63,976 bases of DNA from a virus. The position numbers and the translations under genes are program-made. Below the pieces are notes generated by a model, which saw only the letters and a list, made by a program, of their open reading frames with translations, was not told the DNA's origin and did not search any database. The stretch spans positions 1-63,976 of the IMG/VR virus record IMGVR_UViG_3300027740_000001, one strand, 5' to 3'. Of the stretch, positions 21,716 through 35,038 are shown piece by piece (the first letter of the stretch is position 1; each line of letters starts with the position of its first letter).

Positions 21716-22333
21716 ATGGAAGACTATTTAAGTGGACATAAGAAATGTGGTATTGAGGTTGGTGATCTGGTAAGGATAACAAGAAAGGCAGAATCTGGAG
21801 AGGGGGGATGGGGTAACTTTTGGGTGGGCTTCCTGGATGATATTGTTGGTAAGTATGGAACGGTTAGAAGTGACGATGGCGTCAAGGGATTTGATGTGTG
21901 TACCGAACTGGGATCATTTGATTTTCCATACTTCATACTGGAGAAGATAACCGGTGCCGAACCGGTACCATCACCAAGCGATCACGCCAGTAAATATACT
22001 CTCAAGGACTCCGGTGAACGCGAGACATTCGAAAGTGGTATGGTTCGAGACACGAGAGTGGGAAAGGGCAGATTTGACCTGATCAGCCCCATAGCGCTTC
22101 GTAGGTTGGCACTCATTTACGAGGCTGGCGCGATCAAATATGACTCAAGGAACTGGGAGAAGGGTGCCCCGATTAGCCGCTTCATAGATTCTGCGTTGAG
22201 GCATATAAACCAGTTTAAGGAGGGCAAGAGGGATGAGGATCACATCGCCCAGGCCTGCTGGAATCTATTCTGTGTACTGCACTTTGATGAAGCGAGACCT
22301 GACCTTAACGATCTACCGGTTTACGATATATAA
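21716..22333 (+). CDS. Two-domain protein; C-terminal dATP/dGTP diphosphohydrolase (MazZ-like, DUF5664/PF18909-like) domain
   Basis: RFDLISPIALRRLALIYEAGAIKYDSRNWEKG...ALRH...ED....DHIAQACWNLFC matches the remembered signature of that domain. The N-terminal about 90 aa is a separate small beta-rich domain. Confidence 0.65.
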   Translation: MEDYLSGHKKCGIEVGDLVRITRKAESGEGGWGNFWVGFLDDIVGKYGTVRSDDGVKGFDVCTELGSFDFPYFILEKITGAEPVPSPSDHASKYTLKDSGERETFESGMVRDTRVGKGRFDLISPIALRRLALIYEAGAIKYDSRNWEKGAPISRFIDSALRHINQFKEGKRDEDHIAQACWNLFCVLHFDEARPDLNDLPVYDI

Positions 22334-22891: not shown

Positions 22892-23080
22892 ATGAACGAA
22901 AAGAAAGCCAAGCGACTACGCAGGGAATTGTTCACTCATGATCAATGGTTGTACGAGAAGGCTAACGTTAAGTATGTGCACGCCATAGATAACCGTGACA
23001 ACGAACTTCCGTTTATCATTCGTACATCTGCCATGCTGAACAAGTATCGTGAGAATAAGAGATTGAGCTATGGACATTAA
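22892..23080 (+). CDS. Small basic protein (62 aa)
   Basis: ORF in a co-directional string that overlaps the integrase start. Confidence 0.5.
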   Translation: MNEKKAKRLRRELFTHDQWLYEKANVKYVHAIDNRDNELPFIIRTSAMLNKYRENKRLSYGH

Positions 23081-23867
23081 GGCTATCGTTGATCGATACA
23101 TTCTTGAACTCCAAAAGAAGAACCCGGCTACTCTGTCCCAGTTATATAGATTCATTCTATTCTTTTCTGATATGGACACGGTATCCAAGGAAGATGTAAT
23201 GGACTACATTATAGCCAGGAGACCAGCGGTCAAGCCGTCTACCCTTAACCGTGAGATCACAATTATGAAGCAATTGTTCAGGTGGATGTTAGTACGTGGA
23301 TACATCGACAAAGATCCGTCCGTAGGCATAAAGTACGAGTCCGGGGTGGCTAAGAGGGTGCGGCATATCACAACAGAAGAGGAAGGCCGGCTTATATCAG
23401 AATGCCCTGCCTGGTTACAGCCGATCATCCAATTTGCCACCTCGACCGGTATGAGACGTGGGGAGATCGTGGGTCTGCTGAAGTCAGACGTGAACCTGAA
23501 TGATAAGACGGCTACGATCAGAACATCGAAAAACGGGGAACCGCGGGTTATACCGTTGACGAAGCGCGCCCTCGATGCTGTTGCGGCTACCATCTCGAAG
23601 GGAGATAGGTTGTTCGGGGGTAAGAATGGGGAACCGATTGTGATGTCGAACCTGGAGTACAATATTAGGTCTGCAGCTAATCGTGCAGGAATACATGATC
23701 TACACTTCCACGATATGCGCCATACGTTTGCAACTCGGCTGGTTCGTGCCGGGGTTGATCTATATGCAGTGCAATGCTTGTTGGGACATAAAGGACCAGC
23801 CATGACACAGAGATATAGCCATCATGACATAGGATCGCTGAGGAAGGCTACGGAGAGCGTTATGTGA
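23070..23867 (+). CDS. int: Tyrosine recombinase/integrase, short XerC/D-like form
   Basis: The catalytic signature is present: GMRRGE (Arg I), HFHDMRHTFAT (H-x-x-R), LLGH, and RYSH (Tyr). At 265 aa it has no long N-terminal arm-binding domain. Confidence 0.85.
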   Translation: MDIKAIVDRYILELQKKNPATLSQLYRFILFFSDMDTVSKEDVMDYIIARRPAVKPSTLNREITIMKQLFRWMLVRGYIDKDPSVGIKYESGVAKRVRHITTEEEGRLISECPAWLQPIIQFATSTGMRRGEIVGLLKSDVNLNDKTATIRTSKNGEPRVIPLTKRALDAVAATISKGDRLFGGKNGEPIVMSNLEYNIRSAANRAGIHDLHFHDMRHTFATRLVRAGVDLYAVQCLLGHKGPAMTQRYSHHDIGSLRKATESVM

Positions 23868-23888: not shown

Positions 23889-24059
23889 TTAATGTAAAAC
23901 GTTTAAGTCGTGCCTAAACCTTGCAATAACACAATCTGAGCAATACAAGCTATTCCATAATTCATTAATTGTCGAGCCAACAACCTCTCCGTCTATTAAC
24001 TGTTTAACCAGTCCTTCCCACATCTCTTTCCCACAACCACGACAAAAGAATTTAATCAT
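23889..24059 (-). CDS. Zinc-ribbon miniprotein (56 aa)
   Basis: Manually found ORF: ATG at 24059 after GGGAGGGAAGG. It contains CRGC...CSDC. Confidence 0.5.
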   Translation of the reverse strand: MIKFFCRGCGKEMWEGLVKQLIDGEVVGSTINELWNSLYCSDCVIARFRHDLNVLH

Positions 24060-24079
24060 CCTTCCCTCCCTTGATGAGA

Positions 24080-24493
24080 TTAATACTTTTTATGATATGC
24101 TTTATACGTCCATAATTCTTCTTCCAGGGATTTGATGTGTGCCTTAAATCTATCAATATCCTCACCACCTTCTTTTAAATAAGAGGCAAATCTATTAACC
24201 TTATTCTCCAAATCCTTGATCCTTTTGTCCTTCTCTTCAAGTAATTCTCTCATGAAATTCATCTCATGCTTATCTACCGCAATATTGGTATTCTTCTCGG
24301 AAAGGAGGGAGAGAAGAGAAATTAATGCTTTTGATCCCTGATCAAATACTACCCAGGGTTCTCCAAATCGAAGGCAACCTACTTCTGTACCATCTTCCCT
24401 GGAGTAGAAAGTATACTTTCCATTTTCTAACTCTATCCTTATTCCCCTCTTCTCATTCATTAGTGTTTCCTCAATCTCTTTTACCTCATTCAT
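24080..24493 (-). CDS. Hypothetical coiled-coil protein (137 aa)
   Basis: ATG at 24493 lies 5 nt after GGGAGG and overlaps the upstream stop as ATGA. Confidence 0.6.
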   Translation of the reverse strand: MNEVKEIEETLMNEKRGIRIELENGKYTFYSREDGTEVGCLRFGEPWVVFDQGSKALISLLSLLSEKNTNIAVDKHEMNFMRELLEEKDKRIKDLENKVNRFASYLKEGGEDIDRFKAHIKSLEEELWTYKAYHKKY

Positions 24494-24861
24494 TGGTGCC
24501 TCCCTTCTTTTATTTTTATTCTTTGCAACCATACTGGATATTGAAGAACCGTATTGATAGAACAACTACATCTATCAACTGTGTTTTTACAAATGGTGCA
24601 GATTAGTATTTCTTTCTTATCTATCTTATTTATTGGTGCCTCCCTCCTTCTTTGTAGAGTGTCTAATATAGCAAACATTTTCTCACACAGCCACTGCCGA
24701 TAAGTCCCTATATAATAAACCTTATCAACACGCTGCCCCATCAGTTTGTGTTCATCCGACATACAAGTTACAGGGATTACATTCTCTCTAACCCATTGTT
24801 CAAATTCTTTTCTATTACCTGCCACTACAACAATCATTGTTTTCTCCTTCTCATCGTTCAT
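24490..24861 (-). CDS. Hypothetical protein; the 3' third (24490..24633) looks like a separate Zn-ribbon cistron beginning at an SD-preceded ATA
   Basis: ORF-track ORF. Its internal sequence GGAGGGAGGCACCAATAAAT is paralogous to the GGGAGGCACCAATGAAT start region of the next gene. Confidence 0.55.
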   Translation of the reverse strand: MNDEKEKTMIVVVAGNRKEFEQWVRENVIPVTCMSDEHKLMGQRVDKVYYIGTYRQWLCEKMFAILDTLQRRREAPINKIDKKEILICTICKNTVDRCSCSINTVLQYPVWLQRIKIKEGRHQ

Positions 24862-24988
24862 GGTGTCTTCCTCCTATATAACTCTTCCATATAACTTTCC
24901 ACCACCAAATATATCCCTTGATGGCGATGGGCAGAACCAACAGAAAAATAGTTATTATAATAATAAGCTCAATTTGTTCTTTGTTCAC
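24851..24988 (-). CDS. Small hydrophobic protein (45 aa)
   Basis: Manually found ORF: GTG at 24988 lies 6 nt after GAGGAG. It has a single TM-like stretch, LIIIITIFLLVLPIAI, and its end overlaps the next start. Confidence 0.35.
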   Translation of the reverse strand: MNKEQIELIIIITIFLLVLPIAIKGYIWWWKVIWKSYIGGRHHER

Positions 24989-25018
24989 GGAGTCTCCTCT
25001 ATAGCATGAATAGCTTCT

Positions 25019-25249
25019 CTAATCATATTTGGATCTTGAAGAAGGTTCACTTGACACAAAAAATGAAAGTTCAAAAAATCCATTTTGAATCATCTTCTTT
25101 AGATACTCCAACTCTTCTGATTCAAGTTTAATACTTATCCTTTCCTCATGAATTTCATCGGAAGCATCTTTGATAATTGCATCTGGAAATATCTCTTTTA
25201 GTTCATTTAAATATTTTGCACCTCCGTAGATTAAATCGAATATTTTCAT
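25019..25249 (-). CDS. Hypothetical acidic protein (76 aa)
   Basis: ATG follows AGGAGGGAAG. Confidence 0.6.
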   Translation of the reverse strand: MKIFDLIYGGAKYLNELKEIFPDAIIKDASDEIHEERISIKLESEELEYLKKMIQNGFFELSFFVSSEPSSRSKYD

Positions 25250-25260
25250 CTTCCCTCCTT

Positions 25261-25680
25261 CTAATTCAAATGTGTCTTATGGTCTTTTTCCCAGTGTTCA
25301 CCAAGTCTTTCTAAGATTTCTCCAAAACTACCTCCCTTTACTTTTTTTCCACAAAACTTACATTCAGCTTCTCCGTTATCAGCAATAAGTCGAAATGTTT
25401 CTTTGACTACAGAAATCAGTCTTTGGGTATTTTGTTGTTTTATTCTTGCACATCTCTTGCAAATCCCTTCCCATGCAGAAAAGAGATTCGGGGGCTTTCT
25501 TCCTAGCTGTATATCTTCTTTTAAAACAAAATCTCCACACCTATCACAGATTGCCCAATCATTTGGACATTTACCACATTTTTCACAGTGGGGAGAAAAG
25601 ACATTCATGGTGAATCCACTTTCTCCCCCACAAGGACATTTCCAAACATAACAACTTGTACTCATCTTCCCCTCCTTCAA
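25261..25680 (-). CDS. Multi-zinc-ribbon protein with C-terminal CxxC..H..H module
   Basis: It has at least five CxxC-type pairs. The C-terminal ETFRLIADNGEAECKFCGKKVKGGSFGEILERLGEHWEKDH is paralogous to the 27281..27460 product. Confidence 0.65.
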   Translation of the reverse strand: MKEGKMSTSCYVWKCPCGGESGFTMNVFSPHCEKCGKCPNDWAICDRCGDFVLKEDIQLGRKPPNLFSAWEGICKRCARIKQQNTQRLISVVKETFRLIADNGEAECKFCGKKVKGGSFGEILERLGEHWEKDHKTHLN

Positions 25681-26117
25681 TGTGGATGGGTTAGCAGGAT
25701 TGGTATGGATAAGTCCTGTTTTATGCCCTTTAAATATTGGGTGTTCCCCTCAGCTTCGCCATCACCCATCCATTTTTCCTTCTCTGAGAGGAGGGAGAGG
25801 AGGCCATCAATATCTTTTCTCACTTCTGCAATATAGGTAGAACGATTTAATTTGTTATTAATATCCTTCACCTTATCCATTAGTGCCTCCTTCCTTTCTT
25901 TTTCTAATTCTTCTGGTAATATTTGCAACAGAATTTCATATCTTGCCTCCTTCTCCCTCGAGGTTCGACGAGATTCAAGCCACGACACCTTCATTAATCC
26001 GATCTCTACCTCAGAATGTTGATCTTCTCGATAGTTTTTTGCAAGCCAAAAATAGAAATCCCTCTTGTCTTGTTCATACATTTCTTGTTCGTCCATTATA
26101 TCCTTTTCCTCATTCAT
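25677..26117 (-). CDS. Glu/Lys-rich coiled-coil protein; the frame stays open upstream to an ATA at 26273, adding a Zn ribbon
   Basis: The ORF-track ORF starts at ATG 26117. The same frame encodes TCPKCNST..YRCDNCGW between 26118 and 26273 with no ATG, GTG or TTG. Confidence 0.6.
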   Translation of the reverse strand: MNEEKDIMDEQEMYEQDKRDFYFWLAKNYREDQHSEVEIGLMKVSWLESRRTSREKEARYEILLQILPEELEKERKEALMDKVKDINNKLNRSTYIAEVRKDIDGLLSLLSEKEKWMGDGEAEGNTQYLKGIKQDLSIPILLTHPH

Positions 26118-26265
26118 TTTTTTTCCTCTTATTTTTTTATCAAGCTCTTCCTCTTCGTCCCATCCACAATTATCACAACGGTAGTTTCCACGTTGTATCC
26201 CAACTCCAATATCAACTTCTTCATAACTTAATGTGGAATTACATTTTGGGCAGGTTCGTTCTTGT

Positions 26266-26421
26266 TCATTTATGGGGTCTCCTTCTCTTCTTAAGGATTT
26301 TTAAACAATTCTTACAGGTGACTTTTTTATTAAATACAACAACTTGATCTGGAAATAACGTTAAACCACAAATCGTATCTCCCATATAATAAAACTTTCC
26401 AAGTCTTTTATGCAGTTTCAT
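26266..26421 (-). CDS. Small basic protein (51 aa) with C..CxxC
   Basis: Manually found ORF: ATG at 26421 after AGGAGGGAAG, stop TGA at 26266..26268. Confidence 0.5.
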   Translation of the reverse strand: MKLHKRLGKFYYMGDTICGLTLFPDQVVVFNKKVTCKNCLKILKKRRRPHK

Positions 26422-26437
26422 CTTCCCTCCTTAGATG

Positions 26438-26463
26438 GATGGGTGCCCGCCATCTCACCCTGG
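26438..26463. repeat. Copy 1 of a 26-nt perfect direct repeat GATGGGTGCCCGCCATCTCACCCTGG
   Basis: It is identical to 28931..28956. Counting flanks, the match is 33 nt with 2 mismatches. GATGGATGGGTG recurs at 26434 and 28967. Confidence 0.9.
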
Positions 26464-26497
26464 GCGTTATAATAATCTTTTTAGATTATCCTTTATT

Positions 26498-26653
26498 TTA
26501 ACCTCTGTAAATTTTTTTAGTGCAATCAAAAGATCCCCAACCTTCTCCAACGACGGCTCCAAAAGATGATGATTCTTTGAATCGGCCCCGAATCGGATTC
26601 CATGTATGCGATATCCATGGATACATTTGGCCCTTCGATTTATTTAGTCCCAT
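26498..26653 (-). CDS. Small protein (51 aa); the N-terminus resembles the start of larger phage enzymes, so it may be a truncated remnant
   Basis: Manually found ORF: ATG at 26653 after GGAGG. The product is MGLNKSKGQMYPWISHTWNPIRG.. and then loses the expected Cys motif. Confidence 0.4.
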   Translation of the reverse strand: MGLNKSKGQMYPWISHTWNPIRGRFKESSSFGAVVGEGWGSFDCTKKIYRG

Positions 26654-26666
26654 TATTTTCCTCCGA

Positions 26667-26969
26667 TTAATATATTATTTTTACCCTAAAAAATGATTTT
26701 CTTATCATTTCTAAAATCTTTGTCCAACCGATTCGCGCCACAATGACCGCGCCATCGACTTCCATCCGGTAACAATCTATTCTTGTGGTTCTAAATAGAT
26801 TAATCTCATGGCGGACCAGGCCGAAATCGAAATCCTCTATGATAATCCGCCTCCTGCATTCGGGCAGATTGTGAGGATAATCAGGGGCCGGGCCTTCCTC
26901 TATCTGCCTCAGTTTTGCCGCCCGCATAGCATTATATTTTCGACTGCCATTTTGTCGCCTTCGGTACAT
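26667..26969 (-). CDS. Hypothetical protein (100 aa)
   Basis: ORF-track ORF in a co-directional string. Confidence 0.55.
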   Translation of the reverse strand: MYRRRQNGSRKYNAMRAAKLRQIEEGPAPDYPHNLPECRRRIIIEDFDFGLVRHEINLFRTTRIDCYRMEVDGAVIVARIGWTKILEMIRKSFFRVKIIY

Positions 26970-27000
26970 CCCTACCTTGCAAGCTCCGTATATTCAGTTG

Positions 27001-27177
27001 TTATGCATTATGATTAGACAATTTCCCATTGGTGGCTCGTACTCGCAGCAACTTGGGGTTATCCTTCCGAATGTGCCAGGGTTTACCTTTATTGGGACAA
27101 TCTTTGTATACGGGCCGCCGATCAAATCTACTCGTCCCATTCGATATTAATGGAGTCAGACAATATGAACATTTCAT
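27001..27177 (-). CDS. Small Cys-containing protein (58 aa)
   Basis: ATG at 27177 follows GGTGGAGG. The product starts MKCSYC. Confidence 0.5.
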   Translation of the reverse strand: MKCSYCLTPLISNGTSRFDRRPVYKDCPNKGKPWHIRKDNPKLLRVRATNGKLSNHNA

Positions 27178-27280
27178 CAATGAACCTCCACCAAAAAGCA
27201 TAACAACCGGCTGGACACCGACTGGTGATAGCTCGGTTGGCTAAAGGTTATTGTCGTGCCCCAGCGGGTCAGCCGGAGCG

Positions 27281-27460
27281 TTATGCGAATAAAAACTGGT
27301 TCCCATGTGCTTCTTCCGCATGTTTGCCAAGTTTCTCAAGGATTTCATCCCAATCTTTTCCTTCAACCTGAAAGCCACAAAATCTACAATAAGCTTTGCC
27401 CTCTTCAGCAATTTGATAAAGTGTTTCTTTCATAATTTTAAGCAAATCATCATTTCGCAT
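27281..27460 (-). CDS. CxxC..H..H zinc-finger miniprotein (59 aa), paralog of the C-terminus of 25261..25680
   Basis: ETLYQIAEEGKAYCRFCGFQVEGKDWDEILEKLGKHAEEAH aligns with the C-terminal module of the 139-aa protein. Confidence 0.6.
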   Translation of the reverse strand: MRNDDLLKIMKETLYQIAEEGKAYCRFCGFQVEGKDWDEILEKLGKHAEEAHGNQFLFA

Positions 27461-27576
27461 AACCAATCACTGGAGTTGACGGCCAATAGAACAGGATTCC
27501 CCCACCTCACCTGCCCCGTATCACTCTGATGAGCGTAGACTTGCCTACCCTCCATTGGCCGCAACTCACTTTGTCG
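27461..27576 (-). promoter_or_regulatory. Structured G+C-rich intergenic element A (homologous to element C at 29573..29669)
   Basis: The shared ends are AATCACTGGrGTTkACnnCCAAT and CATTGG(G)CCGCAAyTC. An 8-bp helix pairs CGGCCAAT (27480..27487) with ATTGGCCG (27554..27561). Confidence 0.5.
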
Positions 27577-27891
27577 TTATGCAACTTTAATTCTGGAATC
27601 TCTGGAGATTGCTTGATGATAAGCCTCCACCATCTCTGCTACATTGCGATCAACTCGGGCACACATGGAAACACAATTGAAATCAAAAAAAACTGTCATA
27701 TCCAAGTGTCGTGCTATTCTCAATGCCTCCTTACAAGCATGTTCAATATCCTCGCCAGGTTCAGCTTTTACTCCTTCGATCCACATATAGTGCCTCCTAA
27801 AAAGATGATTAAGAACTGCATAACAATCGCTTCGAGAGGGACGCATGATAGCTTGGTGTTCTTCATGGCATTCTGTGCCTGCGCCCCTCAA
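27577..27891 (-). CDS. Hypothetical protein (up to 104 aa; start uncertain)
   Basis: ORF-track ORF with a TTG start. An internal ATG at 27846 is an alternative start. Confidence 0.5.
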   Translation of the reverse strand: MRGAGTECHEEHQAIMRPSRSDCYAVLNHLFRRHYMWIEGVKAEPGEDIEHACKEALRIARHLDMTVFFDFNCVSMCARVDRNVAEMVEAYHQAISRDSRIKVA

Positions 27892-27901
27892 ACTGATCGT
27901 T

Positions 27902-28123
27902 CTACGATTTAAACCATTGAAGCTTATAACCGCAATTATGACAGTATTTCTGGTTTCTCACTCCCGTTCCACAATGATAGCAATAAGATCTTTTTTTATT
28001 AATATTACCAGCGGAGTCTATTGAACAGCGTACCTCTACACCAGGCCAAAAAACTCGTAGAACAAGTCGCTGGAGCCGATGCGAAATAGCTTCGATAGTT
28101 TTATTTTTAATTCTGTAGCGCAC
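27902..28123 (-). CDS. Double zinc-ribbon protein (73 aa)
   Basis: It contains CYHCG and YCHNCG. Confidence 0.55.
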   Translation of the reverse strand: MRYRIKNKTIEAISHRLQRLVLRVFWPGVEVRCSIDSAGNINKKRSYCYHCGTGVRNQKYCHNCGYKLQWFKS

Positions 28124-28138
28124 GGCTCACCTCAGTCA

Positions 28139-28303
28139 TTATACTTCATTAGAAATTTCCCGTAGTAATGTGAGTGCTCGGTCAATGTCTTCACTTCCAA
28201 TTGCACCCATGTGGTGCTTATTGTCTTGAACATGAGGGCCAGAAAGTAAGTCTATTATGCTTTTTATGTCTTCTGCTAATTTTTTAACTTGTTCGTTATC
28301 CAT
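28139..28303 (-). CDS. Small helical protein (54 aa)
   Basis: ATG at 28303 lies 6 nt after AGGAGG. Confidence 0.5.
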   Translation of the reverse strand: MDNEQVKKLAEDIKSIIDLLSGPHVQDNKHHMGAIGSEDIDRALTLLREISNEV

Positions 28304-28406
28304 TGTTTGCCTCCTGAATTTTAATAAAAAGTATAACCTATCACTCAACCGGACGGTTAAGGGCTGTCACGGGTTCATTGGCGGTAGCCCGCCGGTTAGT
28401 TTTGTG

Positions 28407-28718
28407 TTAGCACCACTTCTTGTCATGTGCCTCTATTGCTGCAACTGCAAGTGCAGCAACCTTCACCATATTTTCGCGGAAATTCTGCACATCTCTTTCG
28501 TTTCTGGCACATTTGTCGGCTGCTCGTCCAAGATATGCGCTTATATACGCTACCCAGTCGTTCCTGGTATTTTTCTGGTCAAAAATATTTGTGTCACCAC
28601 CATGCTTACATTGCGCAACCTGTCGTATTCTTTCATTCAGAACATCTTCCATGGCTTGATCCGTAAATTCACCGTCCCTTGCCGATTGTTCATAATCTTC
28701 CTTTGTCCGGTTTTCCAT
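28407..28718 (-). CDS. All-alpha hypothetical protein (103 aa)
   Basis: ATG follows AAGGAGG. It has the conserved-looking helices ERIRQVAQ..WVAYISAYLGRAA..MVKVAALAVAAIEAHD. The family was not identified. Confidence 0.6.
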   Translation of the reverse strand: MENRTKEDYEQSARDGEFTDQAMEDVLNERIRQVAQCKHGGDTNIFDQKNTRNDWVAYISAYLGRAADKCARNERDVQNFRENMVKVAALAVAAIEAHDKKWC

Positions 28719-28767
28719 TATGATACCTCCTTAAAAATTTGTGCTAACCAGCGGGTCGAGGCGAGCG

Positions 28768-28911
28768 TCAATGTCCCGCTGTAATAAGTTCCTTCTTGCC
28801 ACACTTGGGACAGATAAACCATTCCTTTTGTTCTGCCGTCCCCAATGCTGGAAAGTTAATCCAATAAATCATAACCATTCCACAATTAGAACATCTCCTT
28901 AGTGCTTCCAT
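28768..28911 (-). CDS. Zinc-ribbon miniprotein (47 aa)
   Basis: Manually found ORF: ATG at 28911, containing CSNCG...CPKCG. Confidence 0.45.
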   Translation of the reverse strand: MEALRRCSNCGMVMIYWINFPALGTAEQKEWFICPKCGKKELITAGH

Positions 28912-28930
28912 ATCTTCTACCTAATGGTCA

Positions 28931-28956
28931 GATGGGTGCCCGCCATCTCACCCTGG
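28931..28956. repeat. Copy 2 of the 26-nt perfect direct repeat
   Basis: It is identical to 26438..26463. Like copy 1, it lies 17-20 nt upstream (minus sense) of a small-gene ATG. Confidence 0.9.
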
Positions 28957-29161
28957 ATGTTATATGGGATGGATGGGTGAGCAGGATTCCCCACCCTGCA
29001 CCTATAGACGGTTTTCGCAGTGAGTTTCCACCTGTCAGGGTTGGTGTTGCTCTCACCGTCCCGACCACTCAAAACCTCACCCATTATTGGGATAGCCTTA
29101 CCTGACACTGACATGCCATCACCCATCCCATTATCAATGCAAAATTGCCTGTTAATCAATA

Positions 29162-29316
29162 GTTAGCACTCACGGGAAAAGTGGAGGAGTCTCATGCAGA
29201 AACATATGCTTGCCTTTCTTGGGGGAATATCCCTCGTGAGTATTCGTTCCGGACCTACGACCCACTTGCAAGTCACTACACTTCTACACTCCACGACTCC
29301 TCCCGTCAGTGCTAAC
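29162..29316. ncRNA. 155-nt imperfect long hairpin (structured RNA or MITE-like element candidate)
   Basis: GTTAGCACTCACGGG (29162..29176) pairs with CCCGTCAGTGCTAAC (29302..29316) in 14 of 15 positions. This stacks on GGAGGAGTC (29083+100: 29183..29191) pairing with GACTCCTCC (29295..29303). No credible ORF is present. Confidence 0.4.
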
Positions 29317-29370
29317 CATTCACTGAAGTCCGACCGTCAAAAGACGGCGGCTTAGTTTAAATGTTATCCG

Positions 29371-29572
29371 TCAACCCCAAACATGTACGCCACTCGGTTT
29401 ATCGTAAACTTCATCTGGAGTGCCACTAATATCATTAGCGAGAGTCTTTTTTTTCATAATCCTCTGCATCACGAATAATAACTTTTCTGGCTTCATTTTC
29501 ATTCTTAGCTAACGCAACAGCTATTCCAGGCATGTAATCACTCAATACGTTTCTCCATACGAACATTTTCAT
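29371..29572 (-). pseudogene. Small gene interrupted at an A8 run (45-aa ORF that continues in another frame)
   Basis: The ATG at 29572 follows GGAGG, and the ORF stops at 29435..29437. Removing one A from the run at 29447..29454 gives ..EDYEKKTLANDISGTPDEVYDKPSGVHVWG with a stop at 29371..29373. Confidence 0.5.
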
Positions 29573-29669
29573 ATCAACCTCCATGTGGCGGATAATAAAT
29601 CACTGGGGTTTACAACCAATGTACCAGTGTTCCGGGTTAAAGGGATGATACCCATCATTGGGCCGCAAT
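29573..29669 (-). promoter_or_regulatory. Structured intergenic element C (homolog of element A)
   Basis: Both ends are shared with 27461..27576. Internal helices pair CACTGG (29601..29606) with CCAGTG (29624..29629), and ATGAT with ATCAT (29644..29657). Confidence 0.5.
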
Positions 29670-30071
29670 CTATGCATAATCTTCCACCATAAACAATCTA
29701 CCCTCACCCGATAGTTCTCTATATTTATCTATCAACTTTTGAGCATGGTAACCAGGCAGGTTTCTTCTTGGGATAAACCCATCCGGTGTCATTACGTGTC
29801 GATCAATAGTTATATACACACCCTCTGATGGAGAAATTTTCATAGTGTCCTGGTCAATGGTAACATCACGTTTAGGTAGGCCCCTAACCCACCCCTCTTC
29901 ATCCATTAACAATATTGTTCCGGCAATCATTGAACACATATCATTATCTGGTATGCTACGCAAAAACATATCAACCGTCATGTGTGGACCTATTGCATCT
30001 ATTAAGATAGCGGCCTGACCACGCTGTAGGTGTTTGGGCTGAACTTGATCACTGGATTCTACGTAGCTCAT
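29670..30071 (-). CDS. Hypothetical protein (133 aa)
   Basis: ATG at 30071 follows GGAGCGAGG. Confidence 0.6.
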   Translation of the reverse strand: MSYVESSDQVQPKHLQRGQAAILIDAIGPHMTVDMFLRSIPDNDMCSMIAGTILLMDEEGWVRGLPKRDVTIDQDTMKISPSEGVYITIDRHVMTPDGFIPRRNLPGYHAQKLIDKYRELSGEGRLFMVEDYA

Positions 30072-34669: not shown

Positions 34670-34980
34670 AATGCCCTCCGTTTACCCTGTTAAAGGTTTA
34701 ATTCCGTTAAGGTTAACCCCTATGATGCACATGCCATGCCAACATTCAGCCAACATGCCAACTATTTTGAAAAAATCGTATAACACAAATAATATCATGT
34801 ATTTATATGACTTACTGGCATATTATAGGCATATCATACGAACATCTATCTATAACCACAGTGCCAAATAACGTCACATCGCTTGTGAAAAACTATAATA
34901 ACCCACACCCAACTCGTTGATATAACTCACCGTTACCCAGGTGACAATTTACGCATACAAAATGCCAAAAAATGTCACTA

Positions 34981-35038
34981 ATTATAACAATATGTTATGA
35001 CAAAATGTCCGGATTATAACATACTGTTGTGAAATGTC
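34981..35038. repeat. Two tandem about 27-bp operator-like units, each with a short inverted repeat
   Basis: The units are ATTATAACAATATGTTATGACAAAATGTC and ATTATAACATACTGTTGTGAAATGTC. ATAAC and GTTAT form the inner palindrome. AAATGTC also occurs at 34970. Confidence 0.7.

Follow-up and report, generated by a model that had tools for sequence, protein, structure and literature searches.

The subject of this report is a perfect 26-nt direct repeat, GATGGGTGCCCGCCATCTCACCCTGG, found in a phage genome of 63,976 bp (IMG/VR record IMGVR_UViG_3300027740_000001). The record is complete, with terminal repeats, and was analysed over its whole length, which we call the window. Its genes, which include those for a terminase, a portal, a helicase, a tyrosine recombinase and a virion protein of 2,563 aa, identify the virus as a temperate tailed phage. 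Small genes led by Shine-Dalgarno (SD) sequences form a minus-strand block that runs leftward as an operon from about 34.7 kb to 23.9 kb, and both copies of the repeat lie inside this block. Judged from sequence comparisons, the repeats are most likely attC-like cassette joints, both of the same type and both broken, in a mirror-oriented cassette array that lacks an integrase.

The repeat occurs exactly twice in the whole genome, at 26438-26463 and 28931-28956, in both cases on the plus strand. The copies agree at 26 of 26 positions, no further copy with up to three mismatches exists anywhere in the genome, and none of 100 shuffled sequences gave any match, so the perfect repeat reported in a preliminary description of this DNA is real. 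With its flanks the match extends over 34 nt (26438-26471 against 28931-28964; 32/34 identical, 94%), one more than had been reported for the same two mismatches. The neighbouring GATGGATGGGTG is also duplicated, the second one beginning at 28968 rather than 28967. Both copies lie upstream of the ATG of a small gene, at distances of 16 and 19 nt instead of the 17-20 nt first given, and nine small SD-led minus-strand open reading frames (ORFs) do lie between them. Each copy can indeed be drawn as either of two alternative hairpins. The local folds, though, are no better than those of shuffled sequences (z -1.0 and -0.3), and only one of the two pairings, GGUGAG/CYCAYC, is kept in the related copies discussed below.

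The idea that the copies bracket a G+C-richer segment did not survive a full count. The G+C content of 26464-28930 is 0.428, against 0.434 for the whole genome and 0.443 for the right flank; the hand counts of 55% and 30% on which the idea was based are right for the two short stretches counted, which are unrepresentative. Only the block to the left is low:

23889..26437, minus strand: AT-rich block of about nine small genes, G+C 0.365, which begins right after repeat copy 1 and ends near the recombinase gene

Within 26464-28930 the compositional difference is between the spacers (0.482) and the coding parts (0.410). These spacers belong to a region, 26.4-29.7 kb, that is unique in the genome in that structured spacers of 60-126 nt follow almost all of its small genes; the attC-like hairpins form an array at 26466-29675. 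From left to right, the components are as follows:

26438..26472, minus strand: repeat copy 1, TTATAAC-GC-CCAGGGTGAGATGGCGGGCACCCATC, an R box plus stem-loop 1; a solo 5' half
26667..26969, minus strand: conserved 100-aa gene, which closes the hairpin array here and in related loci
26970..27006, minus strand: solo GCATAAC box and conserved leader of about 30 nt before the 100-aa gene; homology with 12 other loci starts here
27198..27286, plus strand (attC top strand): E1, a full attC-like hairpin of 89 nt, GCATAAC...GTTATGC; fold z -4.9; 19.9 and 24.4 bits in two attC models
27457..27582, plus strand: E2, a 126-nt hairpin with perfect GCATAAC/GTTATGC boxes; fold z -5.5
27818..27905, plus strand: E3, a full attC-like hairpin of 88 nt, GTAGAAC...GTTATGC; fold z -2.9; 15.5 and 22.2 bits in the same two models
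28331..28412, plus strand: E4, two stem-loops, TGCTAAC...GTTATAC on the coding strand
28742..28781, minus strand: 3' half of a composite element, stem-loop 2 (CAGCGGG...CCCGCTG) plus a GTTAGCA box
28768..28911, minus strand: 47-aa zinc-ribbon ORF that lies between both halves of the composite element and whose final codons (AGH, stop) fall inside stem-loop 2
28931..28965, minus strand: repeat copy 2, ATATAAC-AT-CCAGGGTGAGATGGCGGGCACCCATC, the 5' half of the composite element with its 3' half at 28742-28781
29310..29369, plus strand: 60-nt hairpin, GGATAAC...GTTAGCA on the coding strand; 13.1 bits in the attC model
29590..29675, plus strand: E5, a decayed relative of E2 (3' halves 73% identical) with degenerate boxes

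Read on the coding strand, each spacer opens with GCATAAC or a similar box, in which the stop codon (TAA) of the preceding gene is embedded (in E1, the stop of the minus-strand gene upstream), and closes with GTTATGC or a near variant. E1 and E2 are, per nucleotide, the most stable AAC...GTT palindromes in the genome. E1 and E3 are 64% identical over 97 nt and have 26 base pairs in common, 8 of them compensatory and none broken, and their bulges fall at matching alignment columns. In E2, the GUUAUGC box (27457-27463) contains the ATG at which the gene at 27281-27460 starts without an SD. Folding of the helix places this ATG right across from the UAA that ends the upstream gene, which could link re-initiation to termination. 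In two of three cases the ATG in the 3' box shares its frame with the next gene, a count that is uninformative.

Several other readings of the hairpins were tried and rejected. The flanking ORFs are not halves of one protein, as a split gene or translational bypass across the TAA...ATG boxes would require; no target-site duplications flank E1-E3, as expected of miniature inverted-repeat transposable elements; and the GGGGAATCC motifs were considered as parts of a tRNA- or tmRNA-like structure, but the single prediction made by ARAGORN is a tRNA-Tyr in another part of the genome. Upstream of copy 2, about 460 nt (28912-29370) are free of ORFs and made of element fragments. They include GGTGGGGAATCCTG, similar to the interior of E2, and a 33-nt inverted repeat (29158-29190/29288-29320) with the ends GTTAGCAC...GTGCTAAC.

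Boxes of this kind are familiar from integrons, whose attC sites are defined by RYYYAAC...GTTRRRY palindromes after promoterless ORFs. Integron integrases exchange strands between the AA and the C of the box in folded single-stranded DNA. Clusters of attC sites have been described in 21 phages, and five of the sites were validated with IntI1 (Qi et al. 2023, PMC9892861). The sites in Table S3 of that study begin with GCATAAC or (G/A)TATAACGC and end with GTTATAC, TJE1_attC2 being GCATAAC...GTTATAC (PMC9892861). The boxes GCATAAC/GTTATGC and TATAACGC found here are the same as those of IntI1-validated phage attCs and of Vibrio integron attCs. E1 and E3 both carry the RYYYAAC...GTTRRRY pair; the A at box position 3 departs from the strict consensus, but GCATAAC also occurs in the validated TJE1_attC2 and in several Vibrio attCs. 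Both hairpins likewise have the general form of an attC palindrome (about 57-141 nt, bulges in one arm, a variable apex).

A further comparison used two covariance models that contain known attCs only, one built from just the 16 attCs of the Vibrio phage Va_90-11-286_p16 integron and the other from these 16 and three attCs of TJE1. The genome was scanned on both strands with filters off. The best matches of the 16-site model in the whole genome are E1 (19.9 bits, E 0.007) and E3 (15.5 bits), both full length and with ends as predefined, and the same two head the list from the 19-site model (E1, 24.4 bits, E 0.003; E3, 22.2 bits, E 0.01). For comparison, the 16-site model gives 23.4 and 20.1 bits to validated sites of TJE1 and 27.4 bits to a third TJE1 site. 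In about 230 kb of DNA from other phages and from bacteria, noise with filters off never rises above 16.9 bits. A control of 738 kb run with default filters is weak, because these lose 7 of 11 true matches, and was replaced by the filters-off controls. E1 and E3 lie 620 bp apart on the same strand of a 64-kb genome without IntI, and thus form a CALIN (cluster of attC sites lacking integron integrases), defined as at least two attC sites within 4 kb with no integron integrase nearby.

How do the 26-nt repeats relate to these hairpins? The answer is suggested by L013, a related metagenome contig; its 100-aa protein shares 79% identity with that of the phage. L013 contains two repeat-like copies, with 4 and 6 mismatches in 26, and both run directly into a homologue of 28742-28781 (L013 92-127 and 1476-1512; 92-94% identity over the aligned part 28745-28781) and then into a GTTRTGW box. 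The complete L013 element is about 80 nt long and consists of RYYYAAC, stem-loop 1 (GGTGAG/CTCACC), stem-loop 2 (CAGCGGG/CCCGCTG) and GTTRRRY, its fold being closed by pairing of the two boxes. In the phage genome, copy 2 and 28742-28781 are the two halves of this element, separated by the 47-aa zinc-ribbon ORF. Copy 1 lies at the border with the AT-rich block: its stem-loop 1 is followed by an SD, by a 51-aa zinc-ribbon ORF (ATG at 26421, 16 nt on) and by the block itself, and no 3' half comes after it. The 5' arm of the repeat can be aligned with the 5' arms of E1 and E3 through a common GGCAC block.

We consider it fairly probable that the repeats are the box-proximal half (TATAAC plus stem-loop 1) of an attC-like joint of about 80 nt that separates the small genes of a hypervariable cassette array. 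The nearest option in the preliminary description is that of recombination scars or the boundaries of an acquired module, in that the repeats would be half-copies of a portable boundary element that delimits swappable units. The copies are not the limits of a single G+C-rich module, since the interior is a series of about six cassette-like units with hairpins of their own and genome-typical G+C content.

The portability of the joints is best seen by comparing loci that share the 100-aa gene. Homologues of this gene were found on two IMG/VR contigs and eleven metagenome contigs (L003, L004 and L013-L023). The gene and its invariant leader, AAC-TCTTGAATATGTGAACCGTGCAAGGT-ATG in most loci, always stand at the end of the hairpin array. 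Apart from the 100-aa gene, L013 and the phage genome share only the hairpins (88-94% identity); all genes between the hairpins differ, and the order of hairpin types is shuffled. For example, E4 (aligned part 28333-28401) is 88% identical to L013 603-670, which lies between different genes, and the 60-nt hairpin (29313-29367) is 91% identical to L013 328-382, a copy that scores 23.4 bits in the attC model. An E1-like element in L013 (808-900), CATAACACTCCGGC...GTCGGTTGTTATGC, contains the SD and ATG of a 121-aa ORF and is thus a second case of an ORF starting within an element. Among the 100-aa-gene loci, the attC models find a match of 24.4 bits in L003 and eight matches of 22-38.8 bits in 40 kb.

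In each of the 13 loci, the homology that precedes the 100-aa gene sets in at the RYYYAAC box and continues through the leader of about 30 nt. Four of the contigs (L017, L018, L021 and L022) have identical leaders and genes, preceded by four unrelated sequences that diverge immediately before the AAC. Because a 7-nt box is too short for homologous exchange, these junctions argue for site-specific joining at the box, and among the sequence comparisons made here they are its strongest indication.

The orientation of the sites departs from that of known cassettes. On known sites, the attC models score one strand 7-17 bits above the other. Wherever a strong match occurs in the phage genome, in L003 or in the metagenome loci, its top strand runs antisense to the SD-led ORFs. 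These ORFs, on the opposite strand, end with TAA at box positions 4-6. The extra bases of E1 and E3 are in the 3' arm of the coding strand, as they are on the bottom strand of known sites, and the conserved 100-aa module starts with RYYYAAC, not GTTRRRY. Taken together, these features imply that the coding strand would be the one to fold and recombine, and that the unit would consist of a site and the gene downstream of it. The sites of TJE1, by comparison, have the canonical orientation.

In the explanation that we favour, the joints are present or past substrates of a tyrosine recombinase that would exchange strands between the AA and the C of the box in folded single-stranded DNA. With the mirror orientation, the foldable, recombining strand would be the coding strand, and each unit would carry its site 5' of its gene. 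Either an IntI supplied by the host or the short Xer-like recombinase of the phage itself would be the acting enzyme, and the two repeat copies would be broken joints, that is, scars. As direct repeats with 34 bp of near identity, they might still permit loss of 2.5 kb by short-homology recombination, so that cassette loss between the two copies is possible in principle.

A number of results weigh against attC-like joints. The complete element has two stem-loops rather than one bulged hairpin, its two-stem-loop form in L013 gives no match to the attC models, and neither repeat copy is matched by the attC covariance model at E <= 10. The score of E2 (10.1 bits) is at noise level, and E4 and E5 do not rise above noise either. 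In a canonical cassette the ORF is on the attC top strand with the site 3' of the gene, which is not the arrangement here. Both genes flanking a conserved hairpin differ between loci, a pattern predicted by homologous exchange within the hairpins and not by a single crossover point per site. Finally, no integron integrase is encoded in the 64-kb genome, and its one recombinase does not belong to the IntI family:

23070..23867, plus strand: 265-aa Xer-like tyrosine recombinase, convergent with the array and the only recombinase of the genome

This protein reaches 65 bits against TIGR02249, for which the cut-off is 265, and does so in two pieces that skip profile positions 185-240. Its best matches are the XerA, XerD and XerC families. 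A search with a profile of the recombinase found only generic phage integrases (28-38% identity), which served as negative-control DNA; the closest relatives are encoded on contigs of 43-64 kb, those on the 63.8-kb contigs being 48-59% identical. In L019 the 100-aa gene is followed by an integrase and then a host gene. A fragment of a related recombinase lies in L020 only about 230 nt from the end of the 100-aa gene and, for this reason, the AT-rich block (23889-26437) between copy 1 and the recombinase gene may be an insertion.

Considering these results together, one can imagine a phage-specific, integron-like exchange system with mirrored sites 5' of the genes, in which the 100-aa gene, its leader of about 30 nt and the AAC box would serve as an attI-like anchor, and an Xer-type recombinase without the IntI insert would be the catalyst. 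The repeats would then be disabled joints with inserted ORFs. Such a system is undescribed in the literature searched, and we put it forward as a tentative possibility, one about which we remain doubtful.

Could the repeats and hairpins instead act mainly in the mRNA? In phage T7, processing hairpins for RNase III lie between early genes; they are defined by cleavage and are not known to have AAC/GTT boxes or to be portable between unrelated genes. The likeness is in the setting, with related long hairpins on the sense strand between successive small early genes, and intercistronic protection, processing or translational gating could all be envisaged. All elements of the array are indeed on the sense strand between co-directional genes, the repeats stand just 5' of ribosome-binding sites and end 16-19 nt before an ATG, and the preceding stop falls in the 5' box (mostly TAA at positions 4-6) while the next start follows or lies inside the 3' box, as in the SD-less gene that begins within E2. 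E1 and E2 also include helices of at least 20 bp, and E2 folds far better on the coding strand, as sense RNA, than on the other (-52.7 vs -38.7 kcal/mol). Against such a role, Rfam 15 gives no gathering-score match in the genome and only two chance-level matches at E <= 10 over 26200-29800, and the local fold of the repeat is no better than that of shuffles. In L013 the element precedes unrelated genes, at a different distance and after a second stem-loop. Nor does a purely structural RNA role account for the boxes shared with integron attCs, the attC-model scores or the hairpin-free box junctions. The AAC/GTT boxes and the portability set these elements apart from the T7 hairpins. We consider a mainly mRNA-level role unlikely, although it could coexist with one in recombination. 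A promoter for a phage polymerase of the N4 or T7 type was considered and rejected, as no phage RNA polymerase was found in the genome and there are only two copies of the repeat.

Two further explanations involve recombination of other kinds. Perhaps the hairpins are passive conserved linkers, shuffled by homologous or short-homology recombination without any site-specific enzyme, with the 26-nt identity reflecting recent conversion or duplication. The precedent is the PeSL (promoter-early stem-loop) of T4-type phages, a sigma-70 promoter with a terminator stem-loop, which recombines by homology (Arbiol et al. 2010, PMC2839356). PeSL cassettes resemble the present array in that small non-essential ORFs of a hyperplastic region have repeated intergenic stem-loop motifs on either side, at which indels and replacements between related phages begin and end (PMC2839356). 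The passive-linker explanation accounts well for hairpins that are 88-94% conserved while both flanking genes differ, and for the presence of several copies of a type per genome that are very alike within that genome; the phage's PD-(D/E)XK nuclease and AAA_24 protein could be a recombination pair. The defining make-up of the PeSL, however, is absent: between 26000 and 30000 there are 11 promoter-like sequences against 9.5 expected and 5 terminator-like ones against 2.9, and none coincide systematically with the elements. Moreover, at least four upstream sequences with no relation to one another meet the 100-aa module at one nucleotide beside a 7-nt box, with no adjacent hairpin, and the attC-model matches and box identity with validated attCs indicate a specific type of site. 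Passive shuffling on its own appears quite unlikely to us. The other explanation has the phage integrase inserting a 2.5-kb integrative element, with the two copies as its attL/attR cores or as a duplicated attP core. Direct repeats of 26-34 bp around a multi-gene segment, with a tyrosine recombinase gene 2.6 kb away, are what one would look for in such an element. Its interior, though, is a mosaic of units with their own sites, and the L013 copies flank wholly different genes. The 22-nt core is matched only 3 times in 185,579 species genomes, within GC-rich coding frames and with unrelated flanks; these are chance matches, no attB is among them, and exact-pattern searches of IMG/VR and the JGI metagenomes found neither the 26-mer nor the 22-nt core. 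The att-core idea is highly improbable and was dropped.

Returning to attC-like joints as the preferred explanation, the array most closely resembles the CALINs of phages (PMC9892861): an array of small ORFs with imperfect RYYYAAC/GTTRRRY palindromes and no phage IntI, in which E1 and E3 score like validated sites. It differs in that all sites are mirror-oriented, with the bottom strand as the coding strand (TJE1 being canonical), in that several elements have two stem-loops and escape the model while the repeat copies are half-sites, and in that the arrays are closed by a conserved 100-aa gene and a fixed leader. As in integrons generally, the sites are conserved and the genes between them exchanged, with the junction at the AAC/GTT core and a stop codon in the box; E3 even has the same ..GAGAGGGA.../...CCCCUC.. 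arm motif as the Vibrio-type attCs of sedentary chromosomal integrons (Vibrio cholerae repeats, VCRs). Unlike integrons, this locus has no IntI and only an Xer-like recombinase without the IntI insert, and the site polarity is opposite, so that a gene would move together with a site on its 5' side. The genes are transcribed from the promoter of a phage operon, about 6 kb upstream, rather than from a Pc beside attI.

If the joints are active, they provide a concrete mechanism for the turnover of the tiny accessory genes in early operons of temperate phages. The genes would move as discrete cassettes cut at a 7-nt box, from a pool possibly shared with, or parallel to, that of bacterial integrons. 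Given the mirror orientation, the cassette pool is predicted to differ from that of bacteria, and the folded site would lie in the 5' untranslated part of each message, where a single structure might function in DNA exchange as well as in expression. An implication for annotation is that short, perfect direct repeats in the accessory regions of phages may represent pieces of such joints instead of regulatory sites or att cores.

Some observations concern the genes themselves and the rest of the genome. Among GenBank phages, neither the array region (BLASTN) nor two proteins of the segment (tBLASTN) have a match, and searches of IMG/VR with the 103-aa, 199-aa and 133-aa genes and the recombinase found no relatives. 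The 100-aa protein has conserved residues at D46, D48, R63, D65-C66-Y67-R68 and G81-W82; its predicted structure (pLDDT 77) is a helix, four strands and a helix, with no fold match in the PDB at E <= 0.001. Two overlapping weak matches to the attC model (14.1 and 13.4 bits, noise level), with TCATAAC/GTTATAT boxes, lie at 34920-35032, in the AT-rich control region where the leftward operon begins. A DUF1059-like CxxC...H..H module is present in two paralogous copies with 66% nucleotide identity over 138 nt, the one in the array (27294-27430) a free 59-aa gene and the one in the AT-rich block (25268-25404) the C-terminus of a 134-aa multi-ribbon protein. The protein encoded at 21716-22333 contains the N-terminal domain of a dATP/dGTP diphosphohydrolase (PF18909, E 2e-20), a family linked to phage DNA with modified bases.

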